This document shows, one piece after another, positions 831 to 39,294 of a stretch of 39,474 bases of DNA (position 1 is the stretch's first letter; every line of letters starts with the position of its first letter). The notes below the pieces were generated by a model. It was not told the origin of the DNA, searched no databases, and saw only the letters and a program-made list of their open reading frames with translations. The DNA is from a phage. The position numbers and the translations under genes are program-made. The stretch lies in the sequence record PZ618369.1; one strand, 5' to 3'.

Positions 831-861
831 TTGACTATAGGTCTAGACTATGGCCTAATAG
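831..861 (+). promoter_or_regulatory. possible sigma70 early promoter (A1-like), weak -10
   Basis: TTGACT at 831-836; candidate -10 CTAATA/TAATAG 17-19 bp downstream. Confidence 0.3.
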
Positions 862-971
862 CTTCCGTCAACACGACACGGCAACAACCGGATAGTGAAG
901 ACGCCGGGTCATCCCGGTTAAGTAGACAGCCTGATAAGTCATACGAACAACAGGCAGATGACAGAAAGTAG

Positions 972-1008
972 TTGACAAGATGTACCGACTTAAAGTAGTA
1001 TGTACCAC
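972..1008 (+). promoter_or_regulatory. sigma70 early promoter (T7 A3-like)
   Basis: TTGACA at 972-977, TAGTAT 18 bp downstream, followed by GTACCACAT as in T7 A3 as recalled. Confidence 0.55.
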
Positions 1009-3071: not shown

Positions 3072-3268
3072 TTATGGGCTGGGCACTTCTGGTCATCGGC
3101 TACGGGTTAATACTCGCAGTCCTCACGAAAGACATCGTGAAAGCACGTAAAGTCTACCGCTTCCAGTATGTATCGCTGGGGCGCTGGACTGTACGTCAAC
3201 CTAACGGACGATTCATGCGCAACCTCGCGAACGTCTGGGATATAGCAACTCTTGGGAGCAAACTGTAA
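3068..3268 (+). CDS. small membrane protein (66 aa, N-terminal TM segment)
   Basis: ORF track; N-terminus MIMGWALLVIGYGLILAVL is hydrophobic; translationally coupled to both neighbours. Confidence 0.5.
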   Translation: MIMGWALLVIGYGLILAVLTKDIVKARKVYRFQYVSLGRWTVRQPNGRFMRNLANVWDIATLGSKL

Positions 3269-3594
3269 TGAACAAGGCATACGGGATTAATCTGGTACAC
3301 TCTATGGACGCAGACCTTAATCTGCTTTCAGCACTGGCTACGGGCTACCGTCACGGGACCTCAAGTCACACCATTCGTCAACAGCAGGAGCGCGACCGGG
3401 TGCTACAAGTAAGACTCCGGGCTGAGGGCCATAAGTCCGAGCTGATGTGTCTGGCGTATGGTGGACGACCAATCACCGACGATGGTAAACTTCTGGTCTC
3501 AGGCTGGAAGGCGATAGACCAACGGTCAACCATCAAGCACACGACTCGCGGTGACTTCAGTCATCTTCACGCTAACCCTCTGATATGCAAGTAA
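3268..3594 (+). CDS. hypothetical protein (108 aa)
   Basis: ORF track; start overlaps preceding stop (TAATG); no recognisable motif. Confidence 0.55.
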   Translation: MNKAYGINLVHSMDADLNLLSALATGYRHGTSSHTIRQQQERDRVLQVRLRAEGHKSELMCLAYGGRPITDDGKLLVSGWKAIDQRSTIKHTTRGDFSHLHANPLICK

Positions 3595-3602
3595 TTCTGA
3601 CT

Positions 3603-3621
3603 TAACTATCACTATAGGACT
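3603..3621 (+). promoter_or_regulatory. phage RNAP promoter upstream of gene 1 (TTAACTATCACTATAGGAC), +1 G near 3617
   Basis: matches the window's own promoter consensus. Confidence 0.6.
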
Positions 3622-3691
3622 CAAGGTCTAAGACTCCAAGTGAAAGACCAAAGAGACTTTAAGTGAAAGACTAATAACAAGGACTTTAAGT

Positions 3692-6373
3692 ATGAGCGTC
3701 ATCTCTATTGACAAACACGACTTCTCTGACGTGTCGAATGCCATTGAGCCATTTAACCTGCTGGCTGACCACTACGGGCAAGACCTTGCAGTCAAGCAGC
3801 TTCAGCTTGAGCATGAGGCATACACTGAAGGCGAGCGACGTTTCATCAAGAACCTTGAGCGCCAGACTGAGCGCGGGGAACTGGCAGACAATCAGGTCGC
3901 CAAGCCTTTGATGCAGACTCTGGTCCCTAAGATTGCGCAAGCCGTCAAGGAGTGGCACGAAGGAAAAGACGGGAAGCTGTCAACCTCTCGCCCAAGCGTA
4001 GCGTTTACCATGCTGAGCACTGATGAGAAGGCTGTCAAAGACCGCTCTCTGCTCATCTCCTGTGGGTCTGCTGCGGTTATCATACTGAAGGTCATCCTCT
4101 CCAAGCTGGTCAAGCCTGAAGGGATACCGATTACACCGATGGCCTCAGCGATAGGCCGCACACTTGAAGATGAAATCCGCTTCGGTCGCATTCGTGACAA
4201 GGAGCGGGAGCACTTCAAGAAGGCGATAGCTGAGAACCTGAACAAGCGAGCCGGGGCATCCTACAAGAAAGCCTACATGCAAGCGGTTGAAACCTCCATG
4301 CTGGAGCAGGGTCAACTGGAAGATGCGTGGGGAAATTGGAGTCCTACCGAGGCGGTACACGTTGGCATCAAGATGCTTGAGATTGTCATCCAGTCTACAC
4401 AACTTGTCGAGCTTAAGCGTTATGGTGCTGGCAATGCATCGGCTGACGTTGAGATGGTCCACCTGTCAGACTTCTGGGTAAAGAAGATGGCACAACGTGG
4501 ATTCAGCCTCGCGGGTATCGCGCCAGTATATCAACCTTGCGTAGTACCACCTAAGCCGTGGACTGGTGTCGTGGGTGGTGGGTATTGGGCCAAAGGTCGC
4601 AGACCGTTGCCGCTGATTCGATTAGGGTCTAAGTCTGCGGTGGCACGTTACGAAGACGTGTACATGCCTGAAGTCTACGACGCTGTGAACATCATTCAGA
4701 ATACACCTTGGAAAGTGAACAAGAAGGTTCTGGACGTGGTGAACATGGTCGAGAAGCTGAACAACACACCTATTAAAGACATCCCGCAAATGGAACCACT
4801 GAAGCCTGAGGACTATGCAGGTGAGACTGAAGAGGAACTCAAGGCATGGAAGAAAGCTGCTGCTGGTATCTATCGTCGCGAGAAGGCCCGAAAGTCACGC
4901 AGATTGTCACTGAGCTTTATCGTTAACCAAGCGAACAAGTTTTCTCAGTTTAAGGCCATCTGGTTTCCGTACAACATGGATTGGCGAGGTCGCGTCTACG
5001 CTGTACCGATGTTCAACCCTCAGGGTAACGACATGCAAAAAGGCCTCCTGACTCTTGCGGTCGGCAAGCCTATTGGTTCCGATGGCTTCAAATGGCTGAA
5101 GGTACACGGTGCAAACTGTGCGGGTGTAGATAAAGTAACCTTCGAGGAGCGCATTAAGTGGGTGGAAGACAACCATGACAACATCATGGCTACCGCTAAA
5201 GCACCGATGGATAGCATTGAGTGGTGGGGCAAGTTAGGCTCCCCGTTCTGCTTCCTTGCGTTCTGCTTCGAGTATGCTGGCGTAATGCATCACGGATTGT
5301 CTTACTCATGCTCGCTGCCGATAGCGTTCGATGGGTCATGCTCTGGGATTCAGCACTTCAGCGCGATGCTTCGTGACCACATCGGTGGACATGCAGTAAA
5401 CCTGACGCCTTCCGGTAAGGTCCAAGACATCTACCGCATCGTGTCTGACCGCATTGAGGAGGAACTTAAAGTCCTGCTGGTTAACGGTACGGACAACGAG
5501 ATGGTGACTCAAGAGGACAAGAAAACAGGTGAGATTACCGAGCGTCTTAAGCTGGGGACACGAGAGCTTGCGCGCCAGTGGCTTACCTATGGTATGTCAC
5601 GAGAGGTCACTAAGCGTTCGGTCATGACTCTGGCATACGGGTCGAAAGAGTATGGATTCGCAGACCAAGTGTACGAGGATATCGTGATGCCAGCGATTGA
5701 CTCAGGGTCTGGCGCTATGTTCACCGAGCCAAGCCAAGCATCTCGCTTCATGGCTAAGATGATTTGGGAAGCTGTTAGTGTGACCGTAGTTGCTGCGGTT
5801 GATGCGATGAAGTGGCTTCAAGGTGCTGCCAAGCTGCTGGCTGCTGAAGTGAGTGACAAGAAGACAGGCGAAATCCTGAAGCCGTGCCTTCCTGTACATT
5901 GGGTCACACCCGATGGTTTCCCGGTCTGGCAGGAATACCGAAAGAAAGATACCACTCGTCTGAACCTGATGTTCTTAGGGTCATTCAACCTTCAGCCTAC
6001 CGTCAACAGAGGCACGAAGAAAGAGTTGGACAAGCACAAGCAGGAGTCAGGCATTAGCCCGAACTTCGTCCACTCACAAGATGGTAGCCACCTCCGCAAG
6101 ACTGTAGTCCACACGCACCGCAAGTATGGCGTGATGTCCTTCGCAGTGATTCACGATAGCTTCGGGACCATCCCGGCTGACGCTGAGTATCTGTTCCGTG
6201 GCGTCCGTGAGACGATGGTAGAGACCTACCGCGACAACGATGTGCTGCTTGACTTCTACGAGCAGTTTGAATACCAGCTTCACGAGAGCCAGCGCGACAA
6301 GTTGCCTGAGCTTCCGAAGAAAGGTAAACTGAATATCGAAGACATCTTGTCTTCAGACTTTGCATTTGCTTAA
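3692..6373 (+). CDS. 1: DNA-directed RNA polymerase, single subunit (893 aa)
   Basis: palm motifs and C-terminus ...HDSFGTIPADA...ILSSDFAFA match recalled T7 RNAP; size and position. Confidence 0.97.
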   Translation: MSVISIDKHDFSDVSNAIEPFNLLADHYGQDLAVKQLQLEHEAYTEGERRFIKNLERQTERGELADNQVAKPLMQTLVPKIAQAVKEWHEGKDGKLSTSRPSVAFTMLSTDEKAVKDRSLLISCGSAAVIILKVILSKLVKPEGIPITPMASAIGRTLEDEIRFGRIRDKEREHFKKAIAENLNKRAGASYKKAYMQAVETSMLEQGQLEDAWGNWSPTEAVHVGIKMLEIVIQSTQLVELKRYGAGNASADVEMVHLSDFWVKKMAQRGFSLAGIAPVYQPCVVPPKPWTGVVGGGYWAKGRRPLPLIRLGSKSAVARYEDVYMPEVYDAVNIIQNTPWKVNKKVLDVVNMVEKLNNTPIKDIPQMEPLKPEDYAGETEEELKAWKKAAAGIYRREKARKSRRLSLSFIVNQANKFSQFKAIWFPYNMDWRGRVYAVPMFNPQGNDMQKGLLTLAVGKPIGSDGFKWLKVHGANCAGVDKVTFEERIKWVEDNHDNIMATAKAPMDSIEWWGKLGSPFCFLAFCFEYAGVMHHGLSYSCSLPIAFDGSCSGIQHFSAMLRDHIGGHAVNLTPSGKVQDIYRIVSDRIEEELKVLLVNGTDNEMVTQEDKKTGEITERLKLGTRELARQWLTYGMSREVTKRSVMTLAYGSKEYGFADQVYEDIVMPAIDSGSGAMFTEPSQASRFMAKMIWEAVSVTVVAAVDAMKWLQGAAKLLAAEVSDKKTGEILKPCLPVHWVTPDGFPVWQEYRKKDTTRLNLMFLGSFNLQPTVNRGTKKELDKHKQESGISPNFVHSQDGSHLRKTVVHTHRKYGVMSFAVIHDSFGTIPADAEYLFRGVRETMVETYRDNDVLLDFYEQFEYQLHESQRDKLPELPKKGKLNIEDILSSDFAFA

Positions 6374-6664: not shown

Positions 6665-7144
6665 ATGTTTGGTAAGTCAAAACTCAAAGCACAAATCAAA
6701 GAGTTGAGCATGAAGGCGGCATACTTGGAGCGAGTAGTAATAGTCATGGATAAGGACAACGAGAGGCTGAAGGTTAAACTTGCTGAATCAGAGCGTAAGC
6801 GCCTAACACCACCAGCGGCTGTATTTAGCAAGCGTATGGTAGGCATCAAGTTCAAGGCACTGTTCAACGGGATGTACCAACCGACTGAGTTCAAGACTGG
6901 ACCGGGTAACTGCGGTAAGAACGTTAAGCACTTCACAACATCGAAGACTGAGCGCACTATTACCATTCACCAGCACCACGTAGACGGGTCTCAGAAAGAC
7001 TTTGAGTATCGACTGAGCGACATCGACGGTCGAATCCAGTATGACTACGAGCTGGTTAAGGTCTATGGTGAGGAGGCTGAACAGGAACGTATAAACCAAG
7101 TCTTCCGCAACAGACAGCGCTTACACCCTAAACTATCACTATAG
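6665..7144 (+). CDS. hypothetical protein (159 aa), heptad-like charged N-terminus (possible coiled coil)
   Basis: ORF track; stop codon TAG lies inside the following promoter (CACTATAGG). Confidence 0.55.
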   Translation: MFGKSKLKAQIKELSMKAAYLERVVIVMDKDNERLKVKLAESERKRLTPPAAVFSKRMVGIKFKALFNGMYQPTEFKTGPGNCGKNVKHFTTSKTERTITIHQHHVDGSQKDFEYRLSDIDGRIQYDYELVKVYGEEAEQERINQVFRNRQRLHPKLSL

Positions 7145-7148
7145 GATT
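7129..7148 (+). promoter_or_regulatory. phage RNAP promoter (phi1.1-type), TAAACTATCACTATAGGA, +1 G near 7144
   Basis: consensus match. Confidence 0.75.
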
Positions 7149-7190
7149 AGACTCAAGGTCATGACTAAAGTCGTGGCCTTCATGATTAAC
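7148..7190 (+). promoter_or_regulatory. conserved hairpin element AGACTCAAGGTCAT...GTGGCCTT(C/T)ATG, candidate RNase III site
   Basis: stem AAGGTCA/TGGCCTT with one G-U pair; the same element recurs at 14217 and 36872; resembles the AAGGTC...GTGGCCTTAGTCAT motif of T7 RNase III sites as recalled. Confidence 0.5.
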
Positions 7191-8793: not shown

Positions 8794-8804
8794 CTAAACG
8801 TCAA

Positions 8805-8840
8805 CCCAGTGGTCTTCGGACTGCTGGGTTTCTTTGCGTT
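8805..8840 (+). terminator. intrinsic terminator (early terminator TE equivalent)
   Basis: CCCAGTGGTC-TTCG-GACTGCTGGG, a 10-bp stem with two G-U pairs and a UUCG loop, followed by TTTCTTTGCGTTT; located just after the ligase gene as TE is in T7. Confidence 0.7.
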
Positions 8841-12052: not shown

Positions 12053-12268
12053 GTGATTAAACTTATTGAATTTCTTGGTCGTCTGGTGGTGCGTGGCTAT
12101 CGTCGTGCTGCGGTTATGGAACGAAAGGTAGCAGAGAAGGCTGCTGAAGGTGCGGCTGATGCTGCTGCTCTGGCTGACAAGCTGACCATCGAGTCACTGG
12201 AAGCTGGTATGAAGGCACGTCAAGCCGACACCAAAGCTGACCAGTTGGCTCAGTTCTTCAAAGCCTAA
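12053..12268 (+). CDS. hypothetical protein (71 aa, GTG start), Ala-rich C-terminal half
   Basis: ORF track; RBS AAGGAG upstream of GTG; stop lies inside the following promoter. Confidence 0.45.
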   Translation: MIKLIEFLGRLVVRGYRRAAVMERKVAEKAAEGAADAAALADKLTIESLEAGMKARQADTKADQLAQFFKA

Positions 12269-12285
12269 ACTATCACCTTAGGGAT
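12266..12285 (+). promoter_or_regulatory. phage RNAP promoter variant (TAAACTATCACCTTAGGGA)
   Basis: two changes at -4/-3; upstream of gene 4. Confidence 0.5.
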
Positions 12286-12333
12286 GGGACCATGAGTCCT
12301 GTCCCTTTGTTAGCATTTATGATTAAGGAGTGA

Positions 12334-14216: not shown

Positions 14217-14258
14217 TAGACTCAAGGTCATTCACATCGAGTGGCCTTTATGATTAGA
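14217..14258 (+). promoter_or_regulatory. conserved hairpin element, second copy (candidate RNase III site)
   Basis: TAGACTCAAGGTCATTCACATCGAGTGGCCTTTATGATTAGACT. Confidence 0.5.
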
Positions 14259-14277
14259 CTAAAGCGGAGGATTAACC

Positions 14278-26747: not shown

Positions 26748-26797
26748 AAGGGCCTATAGATTTACCTTAACTATCACTATAGGGACTATAGGCCCTT
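26748..26797. repeat. perfect 12-bp inverted repeat (AAGGGCCTATAG / CTATAGGCCCTT) bracketing the phi13 promoter
   Basis: read directly from sequence; 26-nt spacer contains the promoter. Confidence 0.6.
26767..26786 (+). promoter_or_regulatory. phage RNAP promoter (phi13-type), TTAACTATCACTATAGGGA
   Basis: consensus match, +1 G near 26782. Confidence 0.8.
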
Positions 26798-36871: not shown

Positions 36872-36915
36872 TAGACTCAAGGTCATTACTATATGTAGTG
36901 GCCTTTATGGTTAAC
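36872..36915 (+). promoter_or_regulatory. conserved hairpin element, third copy (candidate RNase III site)
   Basis: TTAGACTCAAGGTCATTACTATATGTAGTGGCCTTTATGGTTAAC. Confidence 0.5.
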
Positions 36916-39178: not shown

Positions 39179-39275
39179 CTGAATGAATAACTATAGGAGA
39201 AAGCTGCATGAATACGCAGTTAGTACCCTATAGTTACTACCAGTCTAACCTACTGTTTTACAAGGAGTTTGGACT

Positions 39276-39294
39276 TAACTATCACTATAGGGAA
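39276..39294 (+). promoter_or_regulatory. phage RNAP promoter (right-end phiOR-type), TTAACTATCACTATAGGGAAGA
   Basis: consensus match, +1 G near 39290; downstream of gene 19. Confidence 0.7.

Follow-up and report, generated by a model that had tools for sequence, protein, structure and literature searches.

The element examined here, a promoter for the phage's own RNA polymerase placed directly before the polymerase gene (gene 1), is genuine, ordinary and already known, and it is standard in Kayfunavirus (K1F-like) phages. Indeed, in EcoDS1 (NC_011042/EU734172) the promoter is annotated at 2244-2266 with gene 1 at 2336, in Citrobacter phage CR44b (HG818823) it is annotated in GenBank, and K1F (NC_007456) carries the same promoter sequence at 2476-2494. 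The 106-nt intergenic region of the DNA under study shows 100% identity with that of EcoDS1 and 99% with that of CR44b, and in EcoDS1, CR44b and K1F the element shows the same position ~ 70 nt before gene 1 and the same leader, with no difference of substance. In a 2026 paper on Kayfunavirus, eight CTWAACTATCACTATAGG repeats were read as promoters, one of them at the 3' end of the gene located just before that of the polymerase (PMC13298934).

Similar arrangements are found in other genera. In gh-1 (NC_004665), phi1 is annotated at 939-961, 97 nt before gene 1, which is the first gene of this genome, hence phi1 is also its leftmost promoter. In UNO-SLW4 (KX449363), which has both a left-end site and a gene 1-adjacent site, the latter is annotated at 3814-3839, 86 nt before gene 1. 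Both the gh-1 and the UNO-SLW4 promoters score high with their own matrices. In Vibrio phage phiA318, the predicted promoter phi-A8 lies ahead of the kinase and polymerase genes and has been proposed as autoregulation (PMC4099482). These three phages differ from the present one in promoter consensus, genus and leader sequence. The same wiring, with the polymerase gene under its cognate promoter and a positive feedback, was reportedly built in 1991 by Dubendorff and Studier in the synthetic T7 autogene, where T7 gene 1 is under a T7 promoter. Being engineered, the autogene needs tight repression for stability, whereas the loop considered here would run in lytic infection, where runaway expression would be harmless and where lysozyme-type inhibition probably damps the loop.

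T7 and T3 also have a phage promoter left of gene 1, phiOL, located at ~ 405 in T7 and at 366-388 in T3. The initial annotation of this DNA had contrasted it with T7 on the grounds that the first T7 phage promoter comes after gene 1, which overlooks phiOL; therefore the contrast was overstated and T7 gene 1 is not strictly beyond the reach of the phage polymerase. Like the promoter described here, phiOL could read into gene 1, but from a distance of ~ 2.6-2.8 kb, as it lies close to the left end and ahead of the host promoters, whereas the present promoter abuts gene 1. In our survey, T7, T3, 285P (Berlinvirus), Saitama (Przondovirus) and JSF18 (Chatterjeevirus) showed no gene 1-adjacent promoter; the first four display a left-end promoter match instead, and that of JSF18 is weak (27 bits). 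Morganella phage MP2 was left unscored, since de novo motif finding picked a ribosome-binding-site motif in its genome.

The window, that is the whole stretch of 39,474 nt analysed here (PZ618369.1), is a circularly permuted K1F-like phage genome (Kayfunavirus, Studiervirinae; T7 family). A homologue of the 178-nt terminal repeat of EcoDS1 was observed at 406-583 with no second copy at the window end; thus the physical left end is near 406, and 1-405 represents right-end sequence. A 1-kb query around the promoter matched 222 phage records, in most cases with 90-95% identity; the bulk of them are Escherichia, Salmonella and Enterobacter phages, and others bear the name Kayfunavirus. The early region of the window is ~ 1.1 kb longer than that of K1F and includes a 0.7-like kinase gene. 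The promoter and the transcription unit in which it lies are as follows:

831-1002, plus strand: host sigma-70 early promoters, homologues of EcoDS1 A1 (831-867) and A2 (972-1002)
1217-1669, upstream of gene 1: SAM lyase gene
2109-2843, upstream of gene 1: 0.7-like kinase gene, 244 aa
3268-3594, plus strand: upstream early ORF, 108 aa (phrog_7066, no function assigned), the last of three small ORFs upstream of gene 1
3600-3622, plus strand: phage RNA polymerase promoter, -17 to +6 (ACTTAACTATCACTATAGGACTC), 32.05 bits with the leave-one-out matrix
3692-6373, plus strand: gene 1, single-subunit RNA polymerase, 893 aa (Pfam RNA_pol, E=2e-104)
8803-8830, plus strand: early terminator TE for the host polymerase, matching the annotated TE of EcoDS1 and ending the early unit that contains gene 1

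The promoter contains the 19-mer TTAACTATCACTATAGGAC at 3602-3620 on the plus strand, inside the 97-nt gap that separates the stop codon of the ORF at 3268-3594 from the ATG of the polymerase ORF. It has the orientation of the genes, and the stop codon of the upstream ORF is 5 nt before -17. The initial annotation had placed a promoter-consensus sequence 70 nt upstream of gene 1, which is correct, as the 19-mer ends 71 nt before the ATG. By analogy with T7, +1 is predicted at G3617, 75 nt before the gene 1 ATG. Further downstream, AAGGA is found 8 nt before the ATG at 3692, so that the promoter is followed by a gene with a ribosome-binding site.

Over the whole window, 10 plus-strand sites are within 3 mismatches of TTAACTATCACTATAGGAC, compared to 0.00 expected in shuffles. 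The initial annotation had also proposed to score the gene 1 site with a position-weight matrix made from the other promoters. Built from the nine other promoters of the same genome, this matrix places the site at 32.05 bits, within the 24.2-37.0 bits covered by the ten members when each is scored by leave-one-out. When the genome was scanned, the ten members were followed by a site at 12264 (24.3 bits) and then by a score of 11.2 bits, against a background mean of -50; the same scan showed no promoter directly downstream of gene 1, the next one being at 7129. From -17 to +2 the gene 1 promoter shows no difference from the sites at 26767 and 39275, from which it departs solely at +3 to +6 (GGAC vs GGGA). 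This departure from the strongest sites is seen in four other members of the family as well, and it could mean that the activity of the promoter is low.

Two observations on the promoter family can be added. The site at 12264-12286 (CCTAAACTATCACCTTAGGGATG) represents a weaker, eleventh candidate in which CACCTTAGG replaces CACTATAGG; it is probably a real weak promoter, because the same CACCTTAGG variant is kept at the matching place in two relatives, L017 (11629) and L008 (11160). Furthermore, 3572-3618 shows 81% identity over 47 nt, promoter included, with 39245-39291, which holds the right-end promoter equivalent to phiOR. Outside the promoter, ~ 16 of 25 upstream nucleotides are identical between the two regions, and this resemblance may be the trace of a duplication or recombination between promoter cassettes.

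Between the promoter and gene 1 lies a leader with the following features:

3617-3691, plus strand: A+T-rich 5' leader of gene 1, 75 nt
3619-3628, plus strand: ACTCAAGGTC, the 5'-arm motif of T7-group RNase III sites, without a matching 3' arm
3638-3648, plus strand: direct repeat AAGTGAAAGAC, copy 1
3646-3650, minus strand: T7-primase-type pentamer 5'-TGGTC-3', of which ~ 0.4 are expected by chance per strand per 75 nt
3655-3664, plus strand: direct repeat GACTTTAAGT, copy 1, overlapping the start of the second AAGTGAAAGAC copy
3661-3671, plus strand: direct repeat AAGTGAAAGAC, copy 2
3679-3683, plus strand: likely Shine-Dalgarno AAGGA of gene 1, read from the sequence
3682-3691, plus strand: direct repeat GACTTTAAGT, copy 2, forming the spacer between the Shine-Dalgarno and the gene 1 ATG

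The 71 nt that follow the 19-mer (3621-3691) are 64.8% A+T and 44% A, and the leader is within the top 0.8% of 70-nt windows for A+T. The direct repeats pointed out in the initial annotation are real and slightly longer than first stated; ~ 0.2 copies of each 9-mer are expected per genome strand, and no other plus-strand copies of GTGAAAGAC were found in the genome. Over the likely Shine-Dalgarno, the relatives of groups A, B and C all retain AAGGACTTTAAGTATG, and L023 has AAGGACTTAAAGTATG. Two small reading frames of the leader, GTG AAA GAC TAA at 3663 and one of 8 codons from 3640, are regarded as unsupported, as they have no good ribosome-binding sites. The whole leader folds at -12.7 kcal/mol, which is no better than shuffles either alone or with its flanks (z = 0.15 and 0.13). 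A scan of the whole window against Rfam gave no family above threshold, and the folds of the variant leaders of relatives share no single structure.

The degree of conservation of the region was examined at two levels. The 106-nt intergenic region is present in 222 phage records and shows at least 99% identity in 128 of them, compared to mostly 90-95% for the flanking 1 kb. In an alignment of the window with 17 K1F-type relatives, the divergence per site is 0.3% for the promoter and 0.7% for the leader, against 2.2% for the first and second codon positions of gene 1 and 14.3% for the third; hence the leader is ~ 20 times more conserved than the synonymous sites of gene 1. That the leader is so extremely conserved among K1F-type phages could be due in part to a recent recombinational spread rather than to constraint, and between groups of relatives the leader diverges by 15-35%. 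In a second group (L016, L017, L019-L021 and L024), 3623-3691 is 35% different while the N-terminal region of the polymerase is still 93-94% identical at the protein level, which suggests that the leader cassette of this group was replaced by recombination and not by gradual drift. Two records of unexpected name or length, PQ520054.1 (Enterococcus phage IME_EF3, 7785 bp) and OP272490.1 (56270 bp), also carry the Kayfunavirus intergenic region and may be mislabelled or chimeric assemblies.

A promoter is found before gene 1 in all of the IMG/VR relatives (25/25), with 75-93 nt from the predicted start to the gene 1 ATG and 203 nt in the most distant one, L027. In each of them the -12 to -7 block before gene 1 follows the promoter consensus of that same genome, the blocks observed being AACTAT, AACCCT (L022, L023 and L028), GGAAGGTA (L025) and AACTCT (L027). 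The gene 1 site has been rewritten with each change of specificity, and it has therefore been kept in working order through several switches. The polymerases follow the same pattern: those of the AACCCT genomes have a D at the position of T7 N748, as in T3, while the window and K1F polymerases have N748 and N756 and share an identical specificity-loop segment (the counterpart of T7 744-761). When this K1F segment was grafted into T7 polymerase, specific and orthogonal expression was obtained in vivo from a promoter with the K1F consensus block (PMC3458549). Taken from the sequences, the co-variation of the gene 1 site with the specificity loop argues strongly for a functional site. The polymerase N-terminal region of the three AACCCT relatives is 78-80% identical to that of the window and their promoters are T3-like (AACCCTCACTATAGG), so that a specificity switch is seen among close relatives of the genus. 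In L025, a more distant relative, a tandem array of 13-nt units (CACCTACAGTCAA) is found near the left end, at 338-470, and represents the top repeated motif of this locus.

We now come to what this promoter would do. The initial annotation had proposed that a phage promoter at this place gives positive autoregulation of the polymerase gene and frees it from host read-through; the match to the family, the conserved place, the co-variation with the loop and the lack of a strong terminator stand behind the promoter, and both the feedback and the freedom from read-through are what we infer from them. In our estimate, at a probability of about 0.8, the single-subunit RNA polymerase of the phage has here, directly before its own gene, a class-II-type promoter that works. 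A terminator scan from 3617 to the end of gene 1 found no strong terminator, the sole terminator-like match being a weak 5-bp stem at 5054-5068 inside gene 1; thus the promoter, if firing, yields gene 1 mRNA. Having its own promoter, the polymerase gene would therefore be part of a unit driven by its own product.

Early in infection, the host polymerase would start at the sigma-70 promoters (831-1002) and produce the first gene 1 transcripts by reading through the SAM lyase gene, the 0.7-like kinase gene, the three small ORFs and the gene 1 promoter. Once made, the phage polymerase would initiate at G3617 and transcribe the 75-nt leader, gene 1 and the downstream genes, so that polymerase synthesis would become self-sustaining after the shut-off of host transcription. 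T7 class II promoters are of moderate strength and are shut down later in infection. The GGAC start of the gene 1 promoter resembles those of T7 class II, for example phi1.1B (GGAGAA), and a class-II-like strength and timing is therefore predicted for a start with GGAC in place of GGGA, with a loop that would be damped later as the T7 class II promoters are. Our searches of the literature on Kayfunavirus, the K1F transcriptome included, returned neither mapped transcripts nor in vitro transcription for the gene 1 promoter. Conservation of the promoter does not prove that gene 1 expression is the role for which it is selected, given that replication priming and genome entry would also select for a phage promoter.

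Replication was considered through the leader. In T7, phi1.1A/phi1.1B is the primary origin, the leader being its A+T-rich part, and every T7 origin needs a phage promoter (PMC8373140; PMC12796468). When the gene 1 leader was searched against the whole T7 genome, the best local match was found at 5967-6010 with a score of 44, compared to 23.4 +/- 2.3 for shuffles, and the reverse search of this T7 region against the window returned 3652-3694, the two being reciprocal best matches. Over its full length, the 78-nt leader shares 63 identical columns with the T7 leader from phi1.1B to gene 1.1 in a global alignment that scores 53-57, against -4 +/- 7 (maximum 20) for shuffles. The match is specific on both sides, as phi1.1B is the sole one among 17 T7 promoter leaders (others <=13) and the gene 1 leader is the sole one among 11 window leaders (others <=26). 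The variant leaders of the other relative groups align with the phi1.1B leader as well (41-59). In T3 the best-matching leader is that of phi1.05, with a weak score of 29, and GenBank places phi1.05 next to the primary origin. At the level of motifs, GGACTTTAAGTATG is identical to the initiation region of T7 gene 1.1, and the leader repeats have their equivalents in the (C)TTTAAG and AAGAC motifs, which are also repeated in the T7 phi1.1B region. Judged on these alignments, promoter and leader together appear to form a cassette related to the T7 leader from phi1.1B to gene 1.1, and this relationship is the sole angle that was not found in the records and papers checked.

The two cassettes have further features in common. 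Both promoters are of class-II type with a GGA start, and on the minus strand of each leader a single primase-type pentamer is found at about +27 to +30, GGGTC in T7 and TGGTC in the window. They differ in their surroundings: the T7 cassette comes after gene 1 and serves gene 1.1 whereas that of the window comes before gene 1, and T7 has phi1.1A as a tandem partner with R1.1 between the two promoters, whereas in the window the promoter is single and an R1.1-like module is found separately at 7129-7190. Three canonical T7-group RNase III sites (ACTCAAGGTCA...GTGGCCTTTATGATT) can be observed in the window, at 7151-7190, 14220-14259 and 36875-36915; the first directly follows the promoter at 7129. 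T3 R1.1 is matched best by this first site, and the T7 phi1.1A/R1.1 region by the second.

Promoter and A+T-rich leader could thus represent a T7-type replication origin, mainly or in addition to the expression of gene 1, with transcripts from 3617 serving as primers in an easily melted leader and gene 1 transcription as a side effect or second use. We regard this reading as tentative and rather improbable, although it is the best placed of the alternatives and an origin-like second role would be a reasonable possibility. The specific reciprocal match to the leader of the T7 primary origin, the T3 match next to an annotated origin, the A+T content, the primase-type site at ~ +30 and the absence from the window of a promoter just downstream of gene 1, the place of the origins in T7 and T3, are all consistent with it. 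However, the translation initiation region (GGACTTTAAGTATG) and shared short motifs account for a large part of the alignment score, and the A+T content of 65% is below those of T7 (73%) and T3 (77%). The TGGTC pentamer, of the (G/T)(G/T)GTC primase type, is taken alone within chance expectation. There is one promoter instead of a tandem pair, but in T3 too the annotated origin has a single promoter beside it and, by analogy with T3, tandem promoters may not be essential for an origin. Moreover, several T7 promoters can be secondary origins, so that such an activity would not be specific to the gene 1 site. Narrower still, and slightly more doubtful, is the proposal from sequence comparison that this cassette would be the Kayfunavirus counterpart of the T7 primary origin, moved from after to before gene 1.

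Genome entry offers another role for a promoter at this position. Transcription-driven entry is established for T7 (also cited in PMC4517105), and the site could be selected mainly as the first phage promoter inside the cell, from which the fast phage polymerase would take over and pull in the remaining DNA; phiOL could play the same part in T7. Between the left end (~ 406) and 3602, the matrix scan found no phiOL-like site, the best score being -1.3 bits, and the surveyed genomes without a gene 1-adjacent promoter all have a left-end match, weak in JSF18. However, UNO-SLW4 has both, and any later promoter would serve once inside the cell. We consider selection mainly for entry as unlikely.

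A third possibility concerns RNA processing, with the leader and its repeats as a target for processing by RNase III or as a hairpin that stabilises the 5' end, comparable to T7/T3 R1 and overlapped by the promoter-like sequence. The 10-nt motif ACTCAAGGTC at 3619-3628 is indeed the 5' arm of the canonical sites at 7151, 14220 and 36875 and also that of T3 R0.3, R0.5 and R1.1, and in read-through RNA a long irregular hairpin could form by pairing of CACUAUAGG...CUUUAAGUG. However, the leader has no canonical 3' arm GUGGCCUUUAUGAUU and is therefore not filed as an RNase III site: from the conserved arms ACUCAAGGUC ... GGCCUUUAUGAUU it has the 5' arm only, and this reading was rejected as the main one. 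The folding results given above are also against it, with an energy no better than shuffles, -12.7 kcal/mol compared to about -16 to -20 kcal/mol for the T3 sites, pairings that differ among relatives and no Rfam match. Furthermore, the T7 and T3 gene 1 leaders with R1, when searched against the window, have no counterpart before its gene 1, and a processing site would leave unexplained why the promoter block tracks the specificity of the polymerase. This reading is therefore given little weight, below that of entry. Finally, a chance match or inactive promoter relic, for which the departure at +3 to +6 from the strongest sites is the one point in favour, is effectively refuted by the comparative data, with zero matches expected in shuffles, a site conserved as well as, or better than, non-synonymous sites and its rewriting for at least four promoter specificities in relatives.

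Returning to the promoter as the driver of its own polymerase gene, the result matters little beyond correct annotation. Across the subfamily, the textbook T7 picture in which gene 1 is expressed only from host transcripts fails, since in Kayfunavirus, Ghunavirus, Pifdecavirus and some others the polymerase gene is wired to its own promoter, and this wiring has been kept through several switches of promoter specificity. K1F-type polymerase/promoter pairs serve as orthogonal expression parts, and the natural autogene cassette, whose leader is highly conserved, could be useful there as a positive-feedback module that needs no further assembly. Its resemblance to the T7 origin region is also a cheap and testable lead on where K1F-like phages start replication. 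If the cassette does prove to be an origin, one 100-nt element would both initiate DNA synthesis and place gene 1 under the control of the polymerase it encodes, and the supply of polymerase would be tied to the initiation of replication.
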